From a virus (Duplodnaviria; Caudoviricetes): 64,000 nucleotides of DNA. The notes under the pieces were generated by a model. The model saw nothing but the letters and a program-made list of their open reading frames with translations. It was not told the origin of the DNA and made no database searches. How positions within the stretch are numbered: position 1 is the first letter of the stretch; every line of letters starts with the position of its first letter. Location of the stretch: positions 192,001-256,000 of IMG/VR virus record IMGVR_UViG_3300024493_000235; one strand, given 5' to 3'. Positions 562 through 62,507 of this stretch are shown here, one piece after another. Both the position numbers and the translations under genes were made by a program.

Positions 562-768
562 ATGACAACGACATTCACAAAATTTGGTCTACCTGTTATC
601 TGGTCTTTAGTGAAAAACACCGTGTATGGGTTAAAATATAATCGAAAAGACGTACAGGTACGATGTTCATCCGTAGCAACCATCAAATCTGGCTACGGAA
701 TGTTTTATGAACACATTCCACCCATAGCATTGGATCTGAAAATTGATCCTTCTGGGGCTGTGACATAG
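562..768 (+). CDS. small hypothetical early protein
   Basis: AAGGAG SD then ATG at 562, downstream of an early motif. Confidence 0.5.
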   Translation: MTTTFTKFGLPVIWSLVKNTVYGLKYNRKDVQVRCSSVATIKSGYGMFYEHIPPIALDLKIDPSGAVT

Positions 769-911
769 ACATTTTAAAAGCATTCTCATACAAATGAAAA
801 TTTGTATTACACATATGGAGGTAAAGATTCAATAAAAATGCGCACGCTTTATAGTATATTTACGGGGTGGTTTCTCACCCCGTTATTTTAACAACAAGGA
901 GGATACGTATC

Positions 912-1594: not shown

Positions 1595-3376
1595 ATGGAT
1601 GGTGAAAAATATACATTTATCAATCAGTTCTACTTAAAAGAGCAATGGAAAAATAAAAAAGGCACTTTTAAGAAAGTAGCTGATGATGCAATGATTGTTG
1701 TATATAAGAAAGGGGATAAACAGATTATCAGAATTATCGAAAATCCCGATTTTTCTTTTTATATAGCTAAACAAAACGTCGATGTTCCAAAGTATATAGA
1801 CTTTATATCAAGAGACAGTGTCGACCTTGTTACCATCAAGTATCATGATCTTGAAAAAATTTTAGCTGATTATTGCGGAAGAACTGAAGAGTATAACTAC
1901 ATCAAATCTGCTGGAAAGTATGCAAGTTATGAAGAGAAAATGGAGACACGTAAAAGGTTCATTAAGAGTCTTCATATGAATCCTCGTATCTTTGGATCAG
2001 ATCGCAATATAGAAGAATGGTATAAACAGCAGTTTGTAAAACAGCATGGTGTTCACATAGGCGGTTACAAGCTTATGTTTTTTGATATAGAAACTGATAC
2101 TTTTTCAGATCCATCGGTCGCAAAAAGTCCCATAAACGTAATGTCTTTTTATTTTCAACCTTCAAATACGATGTATACTCTCATTCGGGACGATGAAAAG
2201 ACATATCCTACAATTGCACAATTCAAAAATGATTTGGCATCTGGGGCTTTTTTAGCTCGTCTTAAAGCAGATCCTGACATGAATGGACAAACTGAAGGTG
2301 AAGGAAAAGCTACATTTACAAACAAGGATACAACTTATATCTTCGAATTCTTTGATAATGATTTCGAGATAATAAAAAGACGATATAAAATTATTCACGA
2401 ATTAAAGCCGGATTTTTGCTATGCATGGAACTTCTCATTTGATGAAATGACATGTATTAACAGGGCAAAAAATTATATCGAACGTCATCCTGAAGAAGGG
2501 CGTCTTGAAGATTTATTGTGTCATCCTGATGTGCCTCCTAAATTTCGTTTCTGGAATTTTAGAGAAGATAAAAATCCGAGGCACGAATATTATGACAAAT
2601 GGCATATTCTTTCTATTCCTGGATATACACAATACATCTGTGCAATGTCGACATTTGCAAATATTAGAAAAGGACGTGGTTCTTTCTCATCATATTCTCT
2701 TAATGATATTTGCATGACAATACTGAAAAAAGGAAAACTCGATTATTCCAATATTGCCATAGATCCAATCGAGCTTCCTAAAGTTGATTTTGCAACTCAT
2801 GTGCATTACAATATTAAAGACACTTGGATGATGGCATGTCTCGAAGCTAAAACTAGGGATATAAATGCTCTTATGTATTTAGCAGAATTATCAAGTCTTT
2901 CTAACGTGTGTAAAAAGACTTCGATTGTAACAAACAGAATGATTCAATTCTATGAGAATAATGGTCTTGTTATGGCAAATAACAAGAATGCTCTTATACA
3001 AAATCCTGAAACAGGATATGAAGGCGCTATTGTTGCATCTCCTCATTTGAATGAAGCTCTCATGACTCCTTTATTTCCATATCCGTCTAAAATGATTCGT
3101 CCATTTATAAGCGATGCCGACCTTGCAAGTTTGTATCCGAGTATTGTTATTTTGTTTAACACTTACAAAACGGGATTAGAGTTTCAGATAGATAAGATAG
3201 GACAAGTATCTCAAGTTAGAGATAACATATCAGCCATCAGTATTCCTGAATGCTTTGATAATCTTTTAACAGGAGATATAATGTCATGGACACACGATTA
3301 TCTACAAATGCCATCGATAGGAAATATGGTGGTAGAACTTGACAAAGAGTTAAAGAGATTGGGAGGAGCAGAATGA
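1595..3376 (+). CDS. family-B DNA polymerase, N-terminal subunit (3'-5' exonuclease plus motif A) of a split polymerase
   Basis: ExoI FDIET, ExoII AWNFSFD, ExoIII YNIKD, GYEGAIV, motif A DLASLYPS; stops before motifs B and C. Confidence 0.9.
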   Translation: MDGEKYTFINQFYLKEQWKNKKGTFKKVADDAMIVVYKKGDKQIIRIIENPDFSFYIAKQNVDVPKYIDFISRDSVDLVTIKYHDLEKILADYCGRTEEYNYIKSAGKYASYEEKMETRKRFIKSLHMNPRIFGSDRNIEEWYKQQFVKQHGVHIGGYKLMFFDIETDTFSDPSVAKSPINVMSFYFQPSNTMYTLIRDDEKTYPTIAQFKNDLASGAFLARLKADPDMNGQTEGEGKATFTNKDTTYIFEFFDNDFEIIKRRYKIIHELKPDFCYAWNFSFDEMTCINRAKNYIERHPEEGRLEDLLCHPDVPPKFRFWNFREDKNPRHEYYDKWHILSIPGYTQYICAMSTFANIRKGRGSFSSYSLNDICMTILKKGKLDYSNIAIDPIELPKVDFATHVHYNIKDTWMMACLEAKTRDINALMYLAELSSLSNVCKKTSIVTNRMIQFYENNGLVMANNKNALIQNPETGYEGAIVASPHLNEALMTPLFPYPSKMIRPFISDADLASLYPSIVILFNTYKTGLEFQIDKIGQVSQVRDNISAISIPECFDNLLTGDIMSWTHDYLQMPSIGNMVVELDKELKRLGGAE

Positions 3377-16208: not shown

Positions 16209-17423
16209 ATGTTTTTTAGACCAGAAAGTGACGGCATCGCTATTCAGAAGAAAATGGTGCTAGGTTTACAGCACACATTCACAATGTTCGGGGCTACGGT
16301 ATTGGTTCCAATACTTACCGGATTAAATGTATCTGTTGCGCTTTTTATGGCTGGGGTATGTACAATTCTGTTTCACCTTATTAATCAGGGTAAAGTACCG
16401 ATATTCCTCGGTTCCTCATTTGCGTATATTACTCCCATCATAACTGTCGGATCTTTATTCGGGTTGCAATACGCACAAGGTGGCGTAGTGATTTCAGGCC
16501 TTGTATACGCGTTATTGGCATTAATCATTAAAGCATTCGGTGTTGAGAAGGTATTAAAATTCTTTCCACCAATAGTTACAGGTCCCATAATTGTGATCAT
16601 AGGACTAACCCTTGCACCTGTTGCGGTATCCTCAGCATCGAATGATTGGTTACTCGCTGCAATTAGTTTTATAATCGTACTTGTAATTGCAATTCTTACA
16701 AGAGGATTTATTAAAATGATTCCTGTACTTTGTGGCCTTGTTGGAGGATACATTGTTGCAGTATTGATGGGTAAAGTCGATTTTACTGCAGTAGGAGAAG
16801 CTGCATGGATTGGAATACCAGCTTTTACAATTGCAAAATTTAATGCAAGTGCTGTACTACTTATAGTACCTGTAGCAATTGTAACCTTTGTTGAACACAT
16901 TGGCGATATAATTGCTATCGGGACAGTTTGCAATAAAAACTTTGCGGAGGATCCAGGACTTCATCGGACTTTATTAGGCGACGGATTAATGACTTCGTTA
17001 AGCTCGATGTTTGGTGGCCCGGCGAATACAACTTACTCGGAAAACACTGGAGTAATAGCTTTGACAAAGGTTTTTGATCCATTTGTTATGCAAATTGCGG
17101 CGTGTTTTGCTATATTAATCAGTATGTGTCCAAAATTTGCCGCCGTAATAGCTTCAATTCCTGGTGGTGTCATTGGAGGAATTTCGATTGTGCTATTTGG
17201 CATGATTTCTGCTACTGGTATTCGTAGTATCGTTGATAATAAGGTTGATTTTTCGGCTCCTCGAAATTTATTCATCGCCGCCACGATCCTTGTAATTGGT
17301 CTCGGTGGTACCGGTATTCAAATCAATAATTCTCTCTCGATATCTACAATGGCTCTTGCCGCTGTACTGGGGATTGTGTTAAATAAAGTACTTCCCCAAG
17401 TTAAGATTGACGAAAAAGGTTAA
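16209..17423 (+). CDS. uraA: uracil/xanthine permease (NCS2/NAT family, UraA/PyrP-like)
   Basis: GLQH..MFGATVLVP, P.FLGSSFAY, FPP.VTGP, EHIGD, PNTTYSEN.G signature; many transmembrane helices. Confidence 0.93.
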   Translation: MFFRPESDGIAIQKKMVLGLQHTFTMFGATVLVPILTGLNVSVALFMAGVCTILFHLINQGKVPIFLGSSFAYITPIITVGSLFGLQYAQGGVVISGLVYALLALIIKAFGVEKVLKFFPPIVTGPIIVIIGLTLAPVAVSSASNDWLLAAISFIIVLVIAILTRGFIKMIPVLCGLVGGYIVAVLMGKVDFTAVGEAAWIGIPAFTIAKFNASAVLLIVPVAIVTFVEHIGDIIAIGTVCNKNFAEDPGLHRTLLGDGLMTSLSSMFGGPANTTYSENTGVIALTKVFDPFVMQIAACFAILISMCPKFAAVIASIPGGVIGGISIVLFGMISATGIRSIVDNKVDFSAPRNLFIAATILVIGLGGTGIQINNSLSISTMALAAVLGIVLNKVLPQVKIDEKG

Positions 17424-17468
17424 TTAGTACCTCTGGCCCGATCGGGCCAGAGGTTATTTTTTTATTAT

Positions 17469-17607
17469 TTATATATCTATGATCCGAATCTAAAGGATAT
17501 ATAAATATACATAATCTATATAAGAAATAAGGAATTAAGATTATTAAGTTTGGAGTTGTTAACTCGTGCTTATAACAAATATTCCTTAAAGTATTAAAGG
17601 AAATGGT
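17469..17607 (+). promoter_or_regulatory. conserved 18-bp box plus early promoter plus structured 5' leader (copy 1)
   Basis: 17506-17601 aligns without gaps to 59425-59520 (77/96 identical), with compensatory changes in three stems. Confidence 0.8.
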
Positions 17608-18204
17608 ATGATTGAGAAAAAAGCTTTTTCTATCTTCAATATAATTGAGGGTACAGATCTTACACAAGGGTTTAACCAGCCGTATCTCTTGACATGCATC
17701 GCACAAGCTATCATCGGGCAATTTCACTTGAACCCGAATCTTGAAGGGTTTACAGTCGAATCTGTTACACACCCGTTTACAAAATACGAAAGCGGGTTTG
17801 TCCACAGAATTCACTATTACCAACTTGCAATAGTTCAAACACCTTTGGATTCTCTTGGCCATATGCCGGAAACATGGAAGCCTATTATTTACGATGTCGT
17901 GTTTTACAATATAGGACTTAAAGGAAAAGTCCTTGTGAAATTTACGGCAAATATTCCGGAATGCCATGAACGGTATTACAATATTCTCGCCGGTGATAGT
18001 TTTATGGCTATGGTCAGCGATATTCAGAGAGTTATAGGCGGTAAGGTGGTTCCGTTCTACAACAACTTTGCTATCCTCACAAAAGAAGAATTTGACAAAG
18101 CTTTCCGTGATATGACGATGGAAAGTTGCGGCAAAGAAGATGAATACATAAAATACCAGCAGCGATACCTGAATCAAGGGGTATATACTCACAGGATTCT
18201 GTAA
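17608..18204 (+). CDS. hypothetical protein downstream of the conserved structured leader
   Basis: AAAGGA SD; 198 aa; terminator 18210-18238. Confidence 0.65.
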   Translation: MIEKKAFSIFNIIEGTDLTQGFNQPYLLTCIAQAIIGQFHLNPNLEGFTVESVTHPFTKYESGFVHRIHYYQLAIVQTPLDSLGHMPETWKPIIYDVVFYNIGLKGKVLVKFTANIPECHERYYNILAGDSFMAMVSDIQRVIGGKVVPFYNNFAILTKEEFDKAFRDMTMESCGKEDEYIKYQQRYLNQGVYTHRIL

Positions 18205-18243: not shown

Positions 18244-20136
18244 TTACAGGTTTTTTCGCATCTCTTCCATTTTGGGAGTTCGTAAGAATTGATTACTTGT
18301 CATAACAAGATCCAAAATGGAAATAGCGGCTGTAAGAATTTGTGTGTCAACTTCAGAGCTGTTTATAATAGCGTTGTTCTTCGTTGCATCGTTAGCTCTG
18401 TGTATTTCACGTTTATCGTTTATTAACGTATACGAATCTTCGTAGTTATCATTGATGATATCATACGTCCTATCGCTTTCGATGCATTCTTTAGCGATTT
18501 TATACGACTTCCTCCAAGACCTGAATTTGTTATCGATAATGATTGCATAGGTTCTTGTATATGCTATGCAAATATTGTAAAGTATTTCGTACACATATTT
18601 ATCGATACTCTTTCTGATATTCGACGGCATGGTTTTATTAAGGGATGTAGTAATTGAATCGACAAATTCTCGAAGCACAAGAGCGTTAAGATTGTTCTTA
18701 TCGCGATTCTTATATTCTTCAAGAATTTTGTGGCATATTTTTGGAATGATTGTATTGCCACCGCATACGATTCCGCTTTTTATAGCGGACTTACATCCAC
18801 GTACAGCATCATCGAAAAGATGCTGTTTGTTTTCTTTCTCCTCGATTGTATCCCCACCAACAAAGAGAGTTACCATGTCTCCGTATAAAGCGGCTTTTCT
18901 TCTTTGTAGTAAGAAGATATTGTACTGATTGTCAATGTGTGTTTCACTTTTCATCCGATCTATTTCTTTGTCGATATCATCGATTCTGAACTTGATTCTG
19001 TCGGTGTTGTTTTTTCCGCCTATGAAACGTGTATAATTTGTAGTTGAAGCTATAATCTTATTGCACGTTCCAAGATACGCATCATACTTTTGTGGATCAG
19101 CTTCGATTGGAAATTGTTTTGCGGAATCAACTGTGATAATTGAAGCGCTTATGTTATCGGCTAAGTCTTGAAGATTTTCTTTACCGATAGAAGATTCTGT
19201 GTCCATTTCTATGCACAAGAGCTTTAATATAGTGCCGTGTTTTTCTACGAACCTTATAATCGACTGCCTGAACGATTCTCTTGATGCTTCACAGAATCCT
19301 CCTGCTATAATAACAAGGGGACGAGAACATTTGCCAATGACGTATTCGATTACGTATCGTAGCGCTTCTATATCATGAGTCATGATATGGCCTTTAATAA
19401 GAAGAATCTTCGGATTCACATATACAGCGCGTCTGCCATCAGGTTCTGTAACCATTTCAGGAAGTAGCATTCCCCGGGTGATTTCAAAACCGCGATCAAG
19501 GTCATAATGTGTTACATTCGTTCTCGATAATTCTGCGTTCACAAACCCGTGACCCGGATTTTTAAGAGAGCAAAACATATCAGATACGAGTTTTCCATTC
19601 TCCCAATCGTTATTAAGAGAGATGGATGCAACAGCTTGAATTCTCTGTTCGAAGGTGTCAGTTTTGTTATATCCGCCATCTTTGTACTCAATAAGCGGAA
19701 TTGCGTTTTTCTTGACGATTTCGTTCAGTTTTTGCCCGATTATCTTCAGAGATTCTGCTAAAAATTTAGGGGGTATGTGCCATTTCCTTGCCAGCTTTCG
19801 GATACGATACAATTCGTTCGCAATTACAACAGAACTTGTGGTTCCATCCCCTACTACATCATTTAGGCTTCCTGATATCTTTTGGAATAACCTTGCAGCA
19901 ACTCTTGCCAATCTTGGGTAGAAAACTAAGGACCTGTAGACAGTCCATCCGTCTTTTGTAGTCGTATGATGAAGCATTTGATCTTCTATGATCGTATTTG
20001 CGCCATATGGACCTAATGTGCGTTTAAAGACAGCAGATTCAAAACGAAGTGTTCTTACAATCTCCTTGTCTAGCTCATCAGGCCCCGTGACATTTGAATA
20101 CGTTTCATCTTTTCTCTTTAAAGGATTTAAAAACAT
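18244..20136 (-). CDS. groEL: GroEL-like phage chaperonin
   Basis: TLGPYG, TKDGWTV, GDGTTS, VGG.T..E, DDAV....A...GIV.GG; start placed at ATG 20136 after AAGGAG SD. Confidence 0.9.
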   Translation of the reverse strand: MFLNPLKRKDETYSNVTGPDELDKEIVRTLRFESAVFKRTLGPYGANTIIEDQMLHHTTTKDGWTVYRSLVFYPRLARVAARLFQKISGSLNDVVGDGTTSSVVIANELYRIRKLARKWHIPPKFLAESLKIIGQKLNEIVKKNAIPLIEYKDGGYNKTDTFEQRIQAVASISLNNDWENGKLVSDMFCSLKNPGHGFVNAELSRTNVTHYDLDRGFEITRGMLLPEMVTEPDGRRAVYVNPKILLIKGHIMTHDIEALRYVIEYVIGKCSRPLVIIAGGFCEASRESFRQSIIRFVEKHGTILKLLCIEMDTESSIGKENLQDLADNISASIITVDSAKQFPIEADPQKYDAYLGTCNKIIASTTNYTRFIGGKNNTDRIKFRIDDIDKEIDRMKSETHIDNQYNIFLLQRRKAALYGDMVTLFVGGDTIEEKENKQHLFDDAVRGCKSAIKSGIVCGGNTIIPKICHKILEEYKNRDKNNLNALVLREFVDSITTSLNKTMPSNIRKSIDKYVYEILYNICIAYTRTYAIIIDNKFRSWRKSYKIAKECIESDRTYDIINDNYEDSYTLINDKREIHRANDATKNNAIINSSEVDTQILTAAISILDLVMTSNQFLRTPKMEEMRKNL

Positions 20137-20138
20137 TT

Positions 20139-20489
20139 TTATTGCAAACTCCTTTTTGAATGAGCGATTTTCAAGATATAAAGCGTTCCTTTTCCTTCGG
20201 ATATTTGATAGTAAAAACCATTTTCCGTAGGAAGCGGAATGTCGCAATTTTCAATGACATTGCGACAGCGAGATGTGAATCTAAAAGGAATTGAAAGAGT
20301 ATTTTTTTGCATACTTTTGAAATCAACTCTTTCGACATTAATATCCCCTTTAGATTTGTGTGTTTCACTTATGCGCTTTAGAATGTCCCATGCTGTATTA
20401 ACAAGCGCATCGTAACCCATTGCGATATCAAAACCATTCTCAGGTTTCTCACTACCGCAGAGTTGATTCACAAACGTAATTTTATTCAA
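20139..20489 (-). CDS. hypothetical protein
   Basis: TTG start with GGGGAAGGA SD; directly upstream of the chaperonin. Confidence 0.55.
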   Translation of the reverse strand: MNKITFVNQLCGSEKPENGFDIAMGYDALVNTAWDILKRISETHKSKGDINVERVDFKSMQKNTLSIPFRFTSRCRNVIENCDIPLPTENGFYYQISEGKGTLYILKIAHSKRSLQ

Positions 20490-54915: not shown

Positions 54916-55661
54916 ATGACAAACAAATCTGCGCTAAATTGTGTAGCATGTTTTCTAAGATGCGTAACAACGGTGTCACAAAATGCATTTATTGCGGCAG
55001 AGAAATAATAAAGTGTAAGAAAACACAAATTATGTGCGGATATTGTCATATATACCAAGGATACTACGACTTACTCACTATTCCTTTTAGTCTTTTACAT
55101 TTATATGCAAAACATGTCGACATTCCAAAGGATCTGCTTGTTGAAATCGAGAAGTATGAAACTGTCGAAGGTTTTACAGCATTGCATAGTGAACTATTAA
55201 CCCCGATATATAATATTCAGATAAAGAGATCTGAGTTGAAATGCAAGTTTTGCGGAAAACTGATAGGGGAAAATAATGCATCACAGGTATCAAGATGGTC
55301 GTCACAATTTTGTAGCGAAGTATGTCATCAGCGAAATAAGTTATACAAAGACGGAAAAAGAAAATGCATAATTTGTGGAAAAGAAATTCCGTATGGTTCT
55401 AAACAAAAAGCTTGTAGCGTAGAATGTAAAAGAATCAGAAGAAACGAAACGCATAGAGTAATATACGATAGAAATAAACCGATGTATAATAGAATATGCC
55501 CAGTTTGTGGCAAAAATTTCGCGACATATTTGAGTCGTTCGATGTGTTGTTGTACACACTGCAATCGTCTTTCTATAGACAGAAGAGCTAGGGCTCGAAA
55601 AAGAGAAGAGAGATTAAAATCCTTAAACGGAGGGGGAAAATGGAAAAGAAAAGAGACTTAA
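54837..55661 (+). CDS. multi-Zn-finger (treble-clef repeat) protein 1
   Basis: GVTKCIYCG...Q.MC.YC, Y.T+EG+..LH, then CxxCGK...CS..C repeats. Confidence 0.7.
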   Translation: MRGEKQRRGSARKYVQKQIIDRNENLNDKQICAKLCSMFSKMRNNGVTKCIYCGREIIKCKKTQIMCGYCHIYQGYYDLLTIPFSLLHLYAKHVDIPKDLLVEIEKYETVEGFTALHSELLTPIYNIQIKRSELKCKFCGKLIGENNASQVSRWSSQFCSEVCHQRNKLYKDGKRKCIICGKEIPYGSKQKACSVECKRIRRNETHRVIYDRNKPMYNRICPVCGKNFATYLSRSMCCCTHCNRLSIDRRARARKREERLKSLNGGGKWKRKET

Positions 55662-55897: not shown

Positions 55898-56646
55898 AAG
55901 CGCAGAGGATATTTTTATCTCCAAAAATGGAAGCTTTGTTTCTTCGAAGAACCGTTGAAAAGGACAAGAAGATAGACAAGCGACATCAGAGATGGAAATT
56001 TGAAAAGATGTTTTTCCACGCAAAAATATATGGTACTACAAAGTGTATATGTTGCGGAAGAAAAATCATAAAGAATACTGATACTCAGAAAATGTGTCTT
56101 TATTGTTCGTTTGCATCAAGGGCTTTTAGAGGAGAGAAACCTCCTAAAATAATTGTACCTGATAAATTCATTGAAATTATGGACACATATCATACAATTG
56201 AAGGATATCATGCGTTGCACCGTGATGTGACGCATGATATATACGTCTATTATAAAACCGGAAAGAGGACACGAAAGTGTAAAAATTGTGGTAAAAGACT
56301 TGGATTTGACAGAAGACGTGATCTTATGTTTTGCTGCACAAAATGTAGTGTATCGTTCTATAGCAAGAAACGTTTTAATGCCGATATCGAAGATATTCAT
56401 ACATGCCCTATATGCAAAAAGCAGTTTAGTGTGTCATTTAAAAATAGGGTATTCTGTAGCGCAAAATGTAAGATGCATAAATCAAGAGAGACTGGAAGAT
56501 ATCCTGTAGATAGGGTATGTCCAGTATGCGGTAACACTTTCGAAGCATATCATTATAAGCAAATATACTGTGGAAAAGTGTGTTCGTATACCGCAAGATT
56601 AAAACAGCGGAAGATTCAATATGCAAACAGAAAAGCAAAGAAATAA
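55894..56646 (+). CDS. multi-Zn-finger protein 2
   Basis: GTTKCICCG...QKMCLYC, YHTIEGYHALH, three further CxxC/CxxxC repeats. Confidence 0.7.
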   Translation: MKAQRIFLSPKMEALFLRRTVEKDKKIDKRHQRWKFEKMFFHAKIYGTTKCICCGRKIIKNTDTQKMCLYCSFASRAFRGEKPPKIIVPDKFIEIMDTYHTIEGYHALHRDVTHDIYVYYKTGKRTRKCKNCGKRLGFDRRRDLMFCCTKCSVSFYSKKRFNADIEDIHTCPICKKQFSVSFKNRVFCSAKCKMHKSRETGRYPVDRVCPVCGNTFEAYHYKQIYCGKVCSYTARLKQRKIQYANRKAKK

Positions 56647-56695: not shown

Positions 56696-57667
56696 ATGCC
56701 AAAAAAAGACTGTACTTTGACAGTACATCTGTCAGAGAAATCAAAACGAGCGTTCTTTAACAGAATTGTTAATAAAGACAAAAAGAGAACCGCCGCTCAA
56801 ATTGTAAACAGGTTTGAAAAATTCTTCAGTAGAAAAAGAAGTTTGGGAACTGCAAAATGTATTTATTGCGGACAAACTATTTTGAAGTCAAATAAAAAGC
56901 AATGTATGTGCATATATTGTTATCTTGCAATAGGCCAATATGAACGATATGAAACACGCAGAACTAAACACATCAATATTCCTCCTGTATTCAAAAAGAT
57001 AATGGATACATATTTTACAATCGAAGGATACCTGCGATTACACAAAAAGTTGCTGCAAGATGCATATAACAGACAAATGGGAAAAGAATCTTTACACTGT
57101 AAAATGTGTGGAAAACCTCTAACCGGCAAAAATATCCGGGTATCAAGAGAATACTGTTCGGAGCGGTGCTGTCAAAAACATTACAATCTTCGGCGTCAAA
57201 AAAAGGCGAAGGAAAAATTTGCTACATGCCTTACTTGCAAAAAGAAGTTTAAAGTGACTTATCGACATAAAGTGTATTGCAGTGACAAATGCAAAGTCTT
57301 TGAAAGCGATACATCCTTCTTAGAAGCTGCTAAAGTGTGCCCGATATGCGGAGGCGAGTTTAGTAATTCTATATCGCAGAAGAAATACTGTTCAGAAAAG
57401 TGTGCGAAAGTTGCTGCGTCAAGGTGCACTCAAAAAAGTCGTAAGAAACGGCTAAAAGACCCAAAAGTACTTGCAGAATTTCAAAAGCGTCAACGAGAAT
57501 ATCGTAAGAAACGAAACAGTGAAAGAAAACGAGAGATTTTAAAATCTCTGGGTCCTCGAAAATGTAAGCAGTGTGGAAAGAGGATTCTTAAAAGCGCACA
57601 TCTACGACAGAAATTTTGTTCCAAAGATTGCAACATGCATCATTGGCGCGAGCATCATAAAAGCTAA
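56696..57667 (+). CDS. multi-Zn-finger protein 3
   Basis: GTAKCIYCG...QCMCIYC, YFTIEGYLRLH, four further repeats. Confidence 0.7.
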   Translation: MPKKDCTLTVHLSEKSKRAFFNRIVNKDKKRTAAQIVNRFEKFFSRKRSLGTAKCIYCGQTILKSNKKQCMCIYCYLAIGQYERYETRRTKHINIPPVFKKIMDTYFTIEGYLRLHKKLLQDAYNRQMGKESLHCKMCGKPLTGKNIRVSREYCSERCCQKHYNLRRQKKAKEKFATCLTCKKKFKVTYRHKVYCSDKCKVFESDTSFLEAAKVCPICGGEFSNSISQKKYCSEKCAKVAASRCTQKSRKKRLKDPKVLAEFQKRQREYRKKRNSERKREILKSLGPRKCKQCGKRILKSAHLRQKFCSKDCNMHHWREHHKS

Positions 57668-59360: not shown

Positions 59361-59387
59361 TAATTCGGGGCCAGTTTAGGCCCCGAA

Positions 59388-59529
59388 TTATATATCTATG
59401 ATCCGTAACAATGAAAATTATGATTATATATAATATATATGAGAAATAAGAAATTAAGATTATACTGTTTGGAATCGTCGATTCGTGCAGGTAACAAGTA
59501 TTTCTTAGAGTATCAAAGGATAAAAAGAT
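59388..59529 (+). promoter_or_regulatory. conserved 18-bp box plus early promoter plus structured 5' leader (copy 2)
   Basis: homologous to 17469-17607 with covarying stems. Confidence 0.8.
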
Positions 59530-60267
59530 ATGGATCCGAAAAAAGAATTGACTGTTAATAACTTGGAAATAACCACTGAAAAATATGATGAGCCGACACA
59601 GAGAAAAAAGTCTGACGGTTGGAAATTCAGGGTATACAATTCCGAGCTTTTAACAACCTCAAATGTGTGGTTCATTTCCGGGCATAGTGGCTCAGGAAAA
59701 ACCTCACTAGCAAGTGAACTTGCAAAACGTTTCGGGCGTGAAAGATTTGAATTGGACTGGTTTGAATCTTTCGACGACGGTTTTACCGACACGAGGAATC
59801 CTGGTTACATCGTGCTTAAAGACTTCTATAAGGCAAGAAATCTTACACCGGAAATTGTAAAAAACACATACGACCATGCGTACGATAAACTCCTTGTTGA
59901 TCTTATTCAGTATGCAATGATTCATCCGGTTTATAAAGGTAAGAAAATTATCATCGAGGGTTTGCAATTTATCGCTAAGTTTTATCTTATTTCCAAAATA
60001 CGTAACGGCGATTTGTACATAAACTATCCTGTTATTATTCTGGATGTATCGGATGAACAGGCTATGAGTAATGCATACTACAGGCCGAGTAATGGAAAAT
60101 TGTCGTGGAGTGAATTCGTAAAGGCAAGAAGAAACATGTACAGAAATTGGGAAAGCGCGTACAGGAGATTCTTGGAACTTGTCAAGAGAGAAAGACTTAT
60201 TCACATCACAAGATTCTACAGAACTTCAGCATCATTGGATTTCTTTATAGCTGATTTATCAGTTTAA
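59530..60267 (+). CDS. P-loop kinase/NTPase (nucleotide-kinase-like)
   Basis: ISGHSGSGKTSLA, ELD, IIIEG. Confidence 0.7.
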   Translation: MDPKKELTVNNLEITTEKYDEPTQRKKSDGWKFRVYNSELLTTSNVWFISGHSGSGKTSLASELAKRFGRERFELDWFESFDDGFTDTRNPGYIVLKDFYKARNLTPEIVKNTYDHAYDKLLVDLIQYAMIHPVYKGKKIIIEGLQFIAKFYLISKIRNGDLYINYPVIILDVSDEQAMSNAYYRPSNGKLSWSEFVKARRNMYRNWESAYRRFLELVKRERLIHITRFYRTSASLDFFIADLSV

Positions 60268-60355
60268 AAACATAGAGCTGCGTAATGCAGCTCTATGTTA
60301 TTTTTTTATAAATATATTTTTAAGTATATATAATATGCAAAAAGGAGAGATACAA

Positions 60356-61791: not shown

Positions 61792-61863
61792 AATTTAAGC
61801 CTTCCTTTTGTGTATTTATTTGTATGTTAAAACGAGCTTTGGGTATATATAATCTAAGTAACT

Positions 61864-61940
61864 TGCAGGCAGTTTGGCTATTTCTCATTCCCCTCTCCAA
61901 TACCAATGAGATAGGTCAAACTCGCCTTGCATTTTATTTT
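61864..61940 (+). ncRNA. putative small RNA/attenuator hairpin with C-rich loop
   Basis: early promoter at 61844; long imperfect stem; loop CCCCTCTCCAATACC; U tract. Confidence 0.45.
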
Positions 61941-61958
61941 ATTAACGAGGTGACATAA

Positions 61959-62507
61959 ATGGTATATCAATTATTTCCTGGTATACAAATTCCTCTATTG
62001 AAAATTGGAGATGTGCTGGTTATTTCCGGTAAACAATTTCAGTACAGGGGGACAGTTAGGAGTCTTAAGGATATACCACAAGTAGTTGGTGTATACTTAT
62101 GTCTTGATAACAACAGTTATTATTTGCACCACAAAAAGGATGAAAATAAGGATATTATTATGGCTTACAATAAACATCATGTAGAAAATATCGCTAAAGA
62201 CGATAACCCTGTAACAAGAATTCCTGAGAATATAGAGATATTTACAGTCCCTATATATCCTGAGGACAATTTCCTTAAGATGCTTATAAAGAAAGTGTTG
62301 TACACATTAAAACTTGATACAGTTCAATACAAGAAATTGTTTATGAACGAGAATCATTACAACAATACGAAACGAAGTCTTACAAGTAAGTCTGTTCTTT
62401 CTTATGAAAAATTTTGTGAACTTCTCGATTTATTGGGGCTTACTCACACTATAACCATCTCTTATAAAGATGGATCCGATTTTACTTTTGACAAGGATAT
62501 TGTATAA
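61959..62507 (+). CDS. putative HTH (Cro/C1-like) DNA-binding protein
   Basis: C-terminal LIKKVL...YNNTKRSL....LSYEKF.ELLD.LG. Confidence 0.55.
   Translation: MVYQLFPGIQIPLLKIGDVLVISGKQFQYRGTVRSLKDIPQVVGVYLCLDNNSYYLHHKKDENKDIIMAYNKHHVENIAKDDNPVTRIPENIEIFTVPIYPEDNFLKMLIKKVLYTLKLDTVQYKKLFMNENHYNNTKRSLTSKSVLSYEKFCELLDLLGLTHTITISYKDGSDFTFDKDIV

Follow-up and report, generated by a model that had tools for sequence, protein, structure and literature searches.

Ten copies of a candidate structured leader RNA follow early-type promoters in an uncultivated jumbo phage

Introduction

Two unrelated genes of a large phage are preceded by nearly the same 96 nucleotides, and the question that this locus raises is whether such a leader is a plain repeat, a piece of regulatory DNA or an RNA selected for its fold and, in this last case, what it could do for the messengers that carry it. 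The stretch analysed (64,000 nucleotides, hereafter the window) corresponds to bases 192,001-256,000 of a 268,442 bp IMG/VR virus record with an estimated completeness of 91% and a G+C content of 37%. Among the genes of the record are two with an Rpb2 domain-6, together with those for a T4 gp21-like prohead protease, a GroEL-like chaperonin and a uracil/xanthine permease, and the virus was therefore considered a jumbo phage that has two multisubunit RNA polymerases. Its closest isolated relatives are the Bacillus phage Goe21 (AR9/PBS1 group), the Listeria phage LPJP1, the Staphylococcus phage SA1 and the Yersinia phage phiR1-37, to which the protease shows less than 30% amino acid identity. 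For jumbo phages that have RNA polymerases of their own, gene control has so far been described almost wholly through promoters, and a search of the full-text literature on jumbo-phage transcription found no description of the present leader.

The first of the two copies is flanked by unusual phage cargo, a complete xanthine/uracil permease gene (window 16209-17423, Pfam E-value 1.8e-93) and a gene for a 667-aa chaperonin of the Cpn60/TCP-1 family (18244-20247, minus strand). Elsewhere in the window, a 71-nt direct repeat (54979-55049, 56039-56109 and 56853-56923, 66-72% identity) lies within three adjacent ORFs, where it codes for a Cys-x-x-Cys ... Cys-x-x-Cys stretch, and this suggests that these ORFs form a small paralogous family of zinc-ribbon-like proteins.

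Results

The duplicated leader belongs to a family of ten

The repeat pointed out in an earlier note, between 17506-17601 (copy A) and 59425-59520 (copy B), is indeed a gapless alignment with 77 of 96 identical positions, whereas among 200,000 pairs of 96-mers drawn at random from the window no more than 46/96 positions agreed. The similarity extends further upstream, in such a way that 133 nt can be aligned (17469-17601 with 59388-59520) at 77% identity. When copy A was compared by BLAST with its own genome, four or five copies were detected. A first covariance model was made from five copies and a second one, R2, from ten. Model R2 finds exactly ten copies in the genome, with scores of 64-96 bits, and the next match, at window 1699-1778, has 19 bits and was excluded from the family. 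The copies are located at genome positions 25241, 63046, 69739, 70664, 87284, 88570, 107499, 151868, 209515 (copy A) and 251434 (copy B), all ten on the plus strand. Both originally claimed copies are thus real, but the family is larger than the pair first noticed, with ten members here plus a divergent subtype in related phages (see below). Every one of the ten starts directly after a TATAYATHAT box and ends at a Shine-Dalgarno sequence (SD) and ATG, the leader being around 75 nt long with a structured core of 61 nt. Flanking sequence is also common to several copies, and part of the similarity is plain duplication.

Early-type promoters and single-gene units

The TATAYATHAT box is found 60 times on the plus strand and 28 times on the minus strand of the whole genome, mostly 11-31 nt upstream of a strong SD of the AAGGAG type, and ten of around 60 early units carry the hairpin leader. 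With its spacing, TATAYATHAT-N6-R, this box matches the mapped early (virion polymerase) promoter of AR9, AAATATATATTAT-N6-G(+1) (PMC5312081), from which we infer that the leaders are transcribed from early promoters, by the virion RNA polymerase. The first transcribed base would be window 17522 in copy A and 59441 in copy B, with helix P1 starting from +7, a placement based on the match to the AR9 promoter and on three genes whose ATG is located exactly at N6+1. The early-type promoters of these three genes (genome 64043 and 66840 on the plus strand, 14846 on the minus strand) are followed by no SD, so that their products are apparently leaderless early mRNAs, which favours the predicted start site. 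The single-stranded 5' tail predicted before the hairpin is 6-12 nt long in all the copies, and 6 nt in most of them.

Upstream of copy A, the permease gene ends in an intrinsic terminator (17429..17454, plus strand; 11-bp stem with eight G-C pairs and a T-run as detected in a scan, with a weak match also to the terminator part of an Rfam model), so a new transcription unit begins for copy A. This unit has an upstream box TTATATATCTATGATCCG (17469..17486) and the promoter box TATACATAAT (17506..17515), from which the start at 17522 (N6 and then A) is predicted. Upstream of copy B, a G+C-rich hairpin located 3' of a DUF7484 gene (59364..59387) is followed by an identical TTATATATCTATGATCCG box (59388..59405) and by the promoter box TATATATAAT (59425..59434), with the start at 59441 (G) predicted by analogy with AR9; all these features are on the plus strand. 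Motifs similar to the TTATATATCTATGATCCG box, GATCC or GTATCTA, are present upstream of copies D, F, I and J, and a terminator or G+C-rich hairpin followed by the TATAYATHAT box is found ahead of copies A, B, C, D, E and I. The gene of copy B ends at 60267, just before a terminator (60269-60299), so that its unit consists of one gene. The same holds for the four units examined (A, B, C and I), in which the single gene is followed by a terminator, by a gene in convergent orientation or by the promoter of the next unit, those of I and C being adjacent. A role in antitermination was rejected because these units hold one gene each, and an attenuator was also discarded, as no terminator follows the hairpin.

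Around 30 bases upstream of the promoter of copy C (ATTTCCGTTTTTATTTGTATTTTAA) recur in the genome (~83,609-83,663 compared with 70,610-70,664), and at 83654 they precede another early promoter with a short unstructured leader. This recurrence with a different leader is the reason why the promoter-upstream and leader parts appear to be shuffled as separate modules.

Other long leaders were also observed. Early-type promoters at genome 25914, 26579, 46736, 84409, 109040, 196277 and 206638 have leaders of 60-90 nt that R2 does not match, some of them strongly paired in appearance (e.g., 109040), and these seven may be other types of leader RNA. Another long leader, of a different kind, lies at window 61843-61961 between an early-type promoter (GGGTATATATAAT) and the gene at 61959-62507, and extends as far as the SD and ATG of this gene; it contains a hairpin of ~60 nt (GCAGGCAGTTTGGCTATTTCTCATT...AATGAGATAGGTCAAACTCGCCTTGC) and then the T-rich run ATTTTATTTTATT, and looks like a terminator or attenuator within a 5' UTR.

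A covarying irregular hairpin

When each copy was folded alone, the minimum-energy structure was a single irregular nested hairpin. In copy A (core 17528..17588, plus strand), P1 is formed by 17528-17535 and 17581-17588 (UAAGGAAU/AUUCCUUA) and is followed by the loop UAAGA (17536-17540) opposite CAAAU (17576-17580). Then come P2 (17541-17548/17569-17575), UUAU-u-AAG/CUU-AUAA with its bulged U, a second loop, UUUG (17549-17552), opposite GUG (17566-17568), and P3 (17553-17557/17561-17565), GAGUU-guu-AACUC with the loop GUU at 17558-17560. The corresponding parts of copy B (core 59447..59507, plus strand) are P1 59447-59454/59500-59507 (UAAGAAAU/AUUUCUUA), the loop UAAGA (59455-59459) opposite CAAGU (59495-59499), P2 59460-59467/59488-59494 with a bulged A (UUAU-a-CUG/CAG-GUAA), UUUG (59468-59471) opposite GUG (59485-59487), and P3 59472-59476/59480-59484 with a GUC loop (GAAUC-guc-GAUUC). 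The three helices described earlier, and the compensatory and other pair changes listed for them between both copies, are therefore present. In the family as a whole, P1 has 7-10 bp and is followed by a symmetric, purine-rich internal loop of about 5x5, (W)WAGA opposite CAA(RU), a P2 of 4+3 bp with a conserved one-base bulge on its 5' strand, a 4x3 loop with UYUK opposite GYG, and a 5-bp P3 that ends in a GUY triloop.

Individual copies are marginally more stable than their shuffled versions (z-scores from -1.0 to -2.4), these modest values being due to the A-U richness of the helices. Much clearer was the covariation, drawn mainly from paralogues of one genome and three distant orthologues. 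In the alignment fitted to the model, 91% of the cells are paired, compared with 38-48% when the partners were slid by 1-3 columns, and changes on both sides affect 17 of 20 pairs, values that none of 500 shuffles equalled. Such an alignment is biased towards the model, and the test was repeated on a plain MAFFT alignment of seven copies, in which RNAalifold recovered P1, P2 and P3, compensatory changes being present in 15 of the 22 pairs, and 90% of the cells were paired compared with 40-46% after sliding. The alignment also includes 14 G-U cells, which would be C-A mismatches on the opposite strand, supporting that the molecule under selection is the sense RNA and not a DNA palindrome or an antisense transcript.

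Pairwise identity in the core is higher in unpaired than in paired columns (0.66 versus 0.56), a modest difference that may in part reflect the shared recent ancestry of the copies. Hardly any variation is seen in the GA that precedes P2 and the CAA that follows it, in the GU of the triloop or in either G of GYG, and the position of the bulge in P2 is also kept. The terminator hairpins of this genome are G+C-rich, whereas the helices of the leader are weak; the combination of weak A-U helices with conserved loops points to recognition of both shape and sequence rather than to mere stability. A K-turn was rejected on inspection by eye, as the strand opposite AGA is CAA and offers no GA for tandem sheared pairs. 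An upstream ORF was rejected as well, since there is no conserved start codon and the frame that seems conserved among copies A, B, D and F is interrupted by stop codons in C, G and H. As far as can be judged from its sequence, the element is a 5' leader RNA of ~75 nt that is structured and non-coding, and the earlier proposal of a leader RNA that extends from an early-type promoter to the SD ahead of unrelated genes is borne out.

The ribosome-binding site and the genes downstream

In copy A, the linker AAGUAUU leads to a weak SD, AAAGGA (17596-17601), and to the ATG at 17608 (17589..17610, plus strand) of a gene encoding a 198-aa protein with no family match; its SD:anti-SD duplex was calculated as -6.0 kcal/mol and its mean unpaired probability as 0.74. 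In copy B, the linker GAGUAUC, the SD AAAGGA (59515-59520) and the ATG at 59530 (59508..59532, plus strand) precede the gene of a 245-aa P-loop protein. In none of the copies does the minimum-energy fold pair the SD, and mean unpaired probabilities over the SD window are 0.43-0.82. It had been suggested that the 3' strand of P1 could alternatively pair with the SD, but this pairing is strong only in copy A (-6.3 kcal/mol compared with -6.9 for P1). In the other copies this pairing amounts to -0.7 to -4.3 kcal/mol, no better than that obtained with the tails of other copies, and so it reflects a generic pyrimidine-purine complementarity and not a conserved switch. In view of the free SD and the weak alternative pairing outside copy A, an anti-SD switch was rejected as a general feature. 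The SDs of the leader genes seem weaker than those of short-leader early genes (median around -6 versus -9.2 kcal/mol, one-sided p ~0.03), a weak hint given by a comparison in which the start of copy F was misassigned.

The ten proteins encoded downstream are unrelated to each other, and eight of them have no function assigned by Pfam or PHROG. They comprise two basic proteins of 55 and 75 aa, a predicted lipoprotein, a P-loop protein, a DHH phosphoesterase and five proteins without match. The gene of copy I (genome 69835-70599) encodes a 254-aa product with the N-terminus MKKIWVIACLILIAFAIVSC, a predicted signal peptide of the lipoprotein type, and may be an early membrane or exclusion protein. 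That of copy H (genome 107591-108991) encodes the DHH-family phosphoesterase, for which no homologue was found at E<=1e-10 among 5.8 billion proteins, so that there is no orthologous leader to compare at this position.

Known families and relatives in other phages

In agreement with the earlier note, in which the element was not recognised as a known family, a search of the whole window with Rfam 15 at the gathering threshold returned one tRNA only. Permissive searches (E<=10 for copies A and B, E<=1 for six further loci) gave no match overlapping the element, the sole matches near the copies being upstream terminators. BLASTN of the element, and of 5 kb around copy B, against 50,697 phage records gave no match, and no copy was detected with model R2 in Goe21 (AR9-like), LPJP1, SA1 and phiR1-37. 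A short pattern of the core (GATTAT..GTY..GYG..TAACAA) had 48 matches in IMG/VR and at least 120 in metagenome contigs, none of which scores with the covariance model, and they were attributed to chance. A protein-guided search of IMG/VR with the chaperonin and an alignment of DUF7484 returned no relative.

The closest relatives are metagenomic contigs with core proteins 50-60% identical, of each of which ~20-30 kb were examined. Among these contigs are JGI Ga0466696_419923 (197 kb), Ga0466704_414335 (83 kb) and Ga0466696_092928, as well as gut contigs from ENA of around 210-227 kb. In the JGI contig Ga0466696_419923, a match of 33 bits lies directly after a promoter AAGTATATATAAT and ends at an ATG, and homologues of the protein encoded downstream (42-45% identity) are present on two more contigs, both with an orthologous leader. 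The three leaders share the core GAACUGUUU(A/U)GGUUUA-[P3]-(A/G)UGCCGUGC(A/G)GC, in which P3 is swapped in a compensatory way (GAUAU/AUAUC, GCC/GGC, CUC/GAG). Their architecture is that of the type found in the window, but the one-base bulge has grown to a UUUA/GUG loop; the 5' tail predicted for the relative's leader, from an inferred start site, is of ~11 nt. From these sequences, we consider with moderate confidence that the three leaders represent a divergent subtype of the same family. Scans of IMG/VR for the core of this subtype gave no matches apart from three unrelated G+C-rich ones.

On a related phage contig (L075, positions 700-800, minus strand), a second early-type promoter is located directly upstream of the relative's leader and is followed by what looks like a tRNA-like sequence ending in ...GGTTCAATTCCACCCAGGTCC. 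A weak match in another locus (L081; 18.6 bits, E ~1), with a P3-like AGCUC-GUU-GAGCU-GUG ahead of a lipase gene, was not counted as a member.

Discussion

A proposed recognition element on a subset of early messengers

The reading that we favour, in a tentative way, is that the hairpin is a recognition element for a trans-acting factor that controls the translation or the stability of a subset of the early mRNAs. The hairpin would form near the 5' end of the early transcript and leave the SD free, and the factor, most probably an RNA-binding protein or a nuclease of phage or host origin, would bind the conserved loops and the bulge, coordinating in this way the translation or the lifetime of these messengers, for example in a shut-off after the early phase. 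It is because the hairpin leaves the SD free that we read it as a recognition tag and not as a self-contained switch. Binding of the leader by a protein is plausible, the factor itself and the direction of its control being presumed. A screen of the phage for three RNA-related families, RegA (PF01818, E<=1), RNase III and dsRBD, found no homologue.

A more ambitious version, possible although we hold it with less conviction, makes the hairpin the address label of a new post-transcriptional regulon in jumbo phages with multisubunit RNA polymerases, read by a dedicated phage protein. Its recognition signals would be the GUY triloop and the AGA/CAA loop, carried by a defined subset of the early transcripts of the virion polymerase, and translation, decay or routing could then be timed independently of the transcriptional switch from early to late.

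Alternative explanations

Best placed among the alternatives, if on balance unlikely, is a 5' stabiliser or translation enhancer that needs no specific partner, and such a factor-independent role would fit most of the anatomy. As a stabiliser, a hairpin near the 5' triphosphate would block 5'-end-dependent decay of the RNase J1/RNase Y type in Firmicutes-like hosts; as an enhancer, it would prevent a weak ribosome-binding site from pairing and serve as a standby platform. Stabilisers of this kind are established in Bacillus and its phages (SP82, ermC, aprE), and the fact that every copy has its hairpin 6-12 nt from the predicted 5' end, the unpaired SD and the weaker SDs of the leader genes, as if the leader compensated for them, are all in line with this explanation. 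However, a stabiliser requires a strong stem and not conserved loops, bulge and triloop, whereas the stems found here are A-U rich and barely exceed shuffled sequences in stability. In B. subtilis, a single-stranded 5' tail of 6-12 nt is long for good protection, and only ten of ~60 early units carry the hairpin.

Rather improbable, in our opinion, is a processing site for an endoribonuclease as in T7 or SP82, either the host RNase III or an unrecognised phage nuclease, whose cut in the hairpin would remove the 5' end and set the stability or translatability of the mRNA downstream. The layout is that of T7 and SP82, with a promoter, an irregular hairpin with conserved internal loops and a ribosome-binding site repeated around ten times per genome, and the ~20 stacked pairs are near the size of an RNase III substrate. 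These pairs are nevertheless distributed in three helices of 8, 7 and 5 bp, parted by the 5x5 and 4x3 loops, in such a way that the longest unbroken helix in the family is of 8-10 bp and the 5x5 loop interrupts the stack, whereas the RNase III sites of B. subtilis are consistently paired around the cut (PMC11780869). In addition, no gene for an RNase III or dsRBD protein was found in the phage, and units A, B, C and I have their own promoters after terminators, without a polycistronic precursor to be processed.

A riboswitch, in which the internal loops would be the pocket for a small molecule that controls the translation of the ten genes, could account for the conservation of these loops and for their position in the 5' UTR, but it is very improbable. 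There is no expression platform, as neither a terminator nor a U-run follows P1 and neither fold sequesters the SD; no metabolic or transport theme unites the ten genes, which are orphans unrelated to one another; and no riboswitch family of Rfam matches, even at E<=10. Of the protein- or ligand-binding switch proposed in the earlier note, the ligand part is therefore unlikely, in view of the absent expression platform and the unrelated orphan genes.

Scarcely credible is an element acting as DNA, be it the P3 palindrome (e.g., GGATC-GTT-GATCC) as operator of a dimeric protein or a recombination cassette with no role for the RNA: P3 has the form of an inverted repeat, the orphan genes have terminator-promoter-leader blocks at their sides in the manner of the PeSLs of T4-like phages (PMC2839356, PMC4122927) and the recurrence at 83654 speaks of shuffled modules, but the half-sites vary while staying complementary (GAGTT/AACTC, GAATC/GATTC, GGATT/AATCC, AGATC/GATCT), the opposite of an operator, a cassette has no need for compensatory changes, and the covariation of three nested helices, with G-U pairs that work only in the sense RNA, largely refutes this reading.

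Significance

A covarying leader present in ten copies on a subset of early genes would show directly that control in phages of this kind has a second layer, a post-transcriptional one. The 61-nt core, with its defined invariant loop bases, could serve as bait to find its reader, and a well-supported candidate is added to the small catalogue of phage cis-regulatory RNAs. The ten orphan early genes would also be marked as a co-regulated set, a lead to host-takeover functions in an uncultivated lineage.

Comparison with known systems

The RNase III hairpins of T7 and the homologous Bs-RNase III sites of the early mRNA of SP82, whose host is a Firmicute, act on the stability and translation of the messengers. 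For the sites in SP82 early mRNA, PMC4838370 cites Panganiban and Whiteley (1983). The likeness with the present leader consists in the presence of around ten copies of an irregular hairpin between a promoter (or gene end) and a ribosome-binding site. In contrast, the helices of the leader are shorter (5-10 bp) and include the 5x5 loop, the units examined are monocistronic, and no similarity in sequence or covariance model could be established.

The PeSLs of T4-like phages consist of a terminator stem-loop and a sigma-70 early promoter and act as substrates for recombination (PMC2839356, PMC4122927). Repeated blocks of terminator and early promoter beside variable orphan genes, as well as modular shuffling, are shared with them, a likeness that concerns only the surroundings of the leader, because PeSLs have no long covarying leader RNA whereas here the feature under selection is the fold of the 5' UTR RNA.

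With the operators of phage RNA regulators (T4 RegA, T4 gp43, the MS2/PP7 coat proteins and lambda N-boxB) the family shares a short RNA element near the 5' end or the ribosome-binding site, present on several mRNAs, with recognition through loops or bulges and the logic of a post-transcriptional regulon. RegA sites are unstructured and overlap the start codon, and the phage, unlike those with a RegA regulon, has no match to PF01818. Coat-protein and boxB hairpins have 15-25 nt, compared with ~61 nt and three helices here. In contrast to lambda nut/boxB and HK022 put, copies A, B, C and I precede a single gene and there is nothing further downstream to antiterminate.

AR9 is a phage of the same group, likewise equipped with two multisubunit RNA polymerases, and its early promoters are of the type found here. 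For some of its early transcripts, long UTRs (78-124 nt) have been described that are predicted to share a motif with no assigned function (Lavysh et al. 2017, PMC5312081, Fig. S3). We extracted and folded nine of these long UTRs and found neither the fold of the leader nor a sequence in common with it. One of the AR9 early genes, g157, encodes the DHH oligoribonuclease NrnB behind a 124-nt UTR, which recalls the DHH gene located behind copy H, but this UTR folds differently, as a long perfect hairpin.

The leader is thus closest to the T7/SP82 hairpins in layout, to PeSLs in context and to the operators of phage translational repressors in logic, and it cannot be assigned to any of them. We rate it as a new RNA family, one more among those leader hairpins of phages by which a post-transcriptional regulon is defined.
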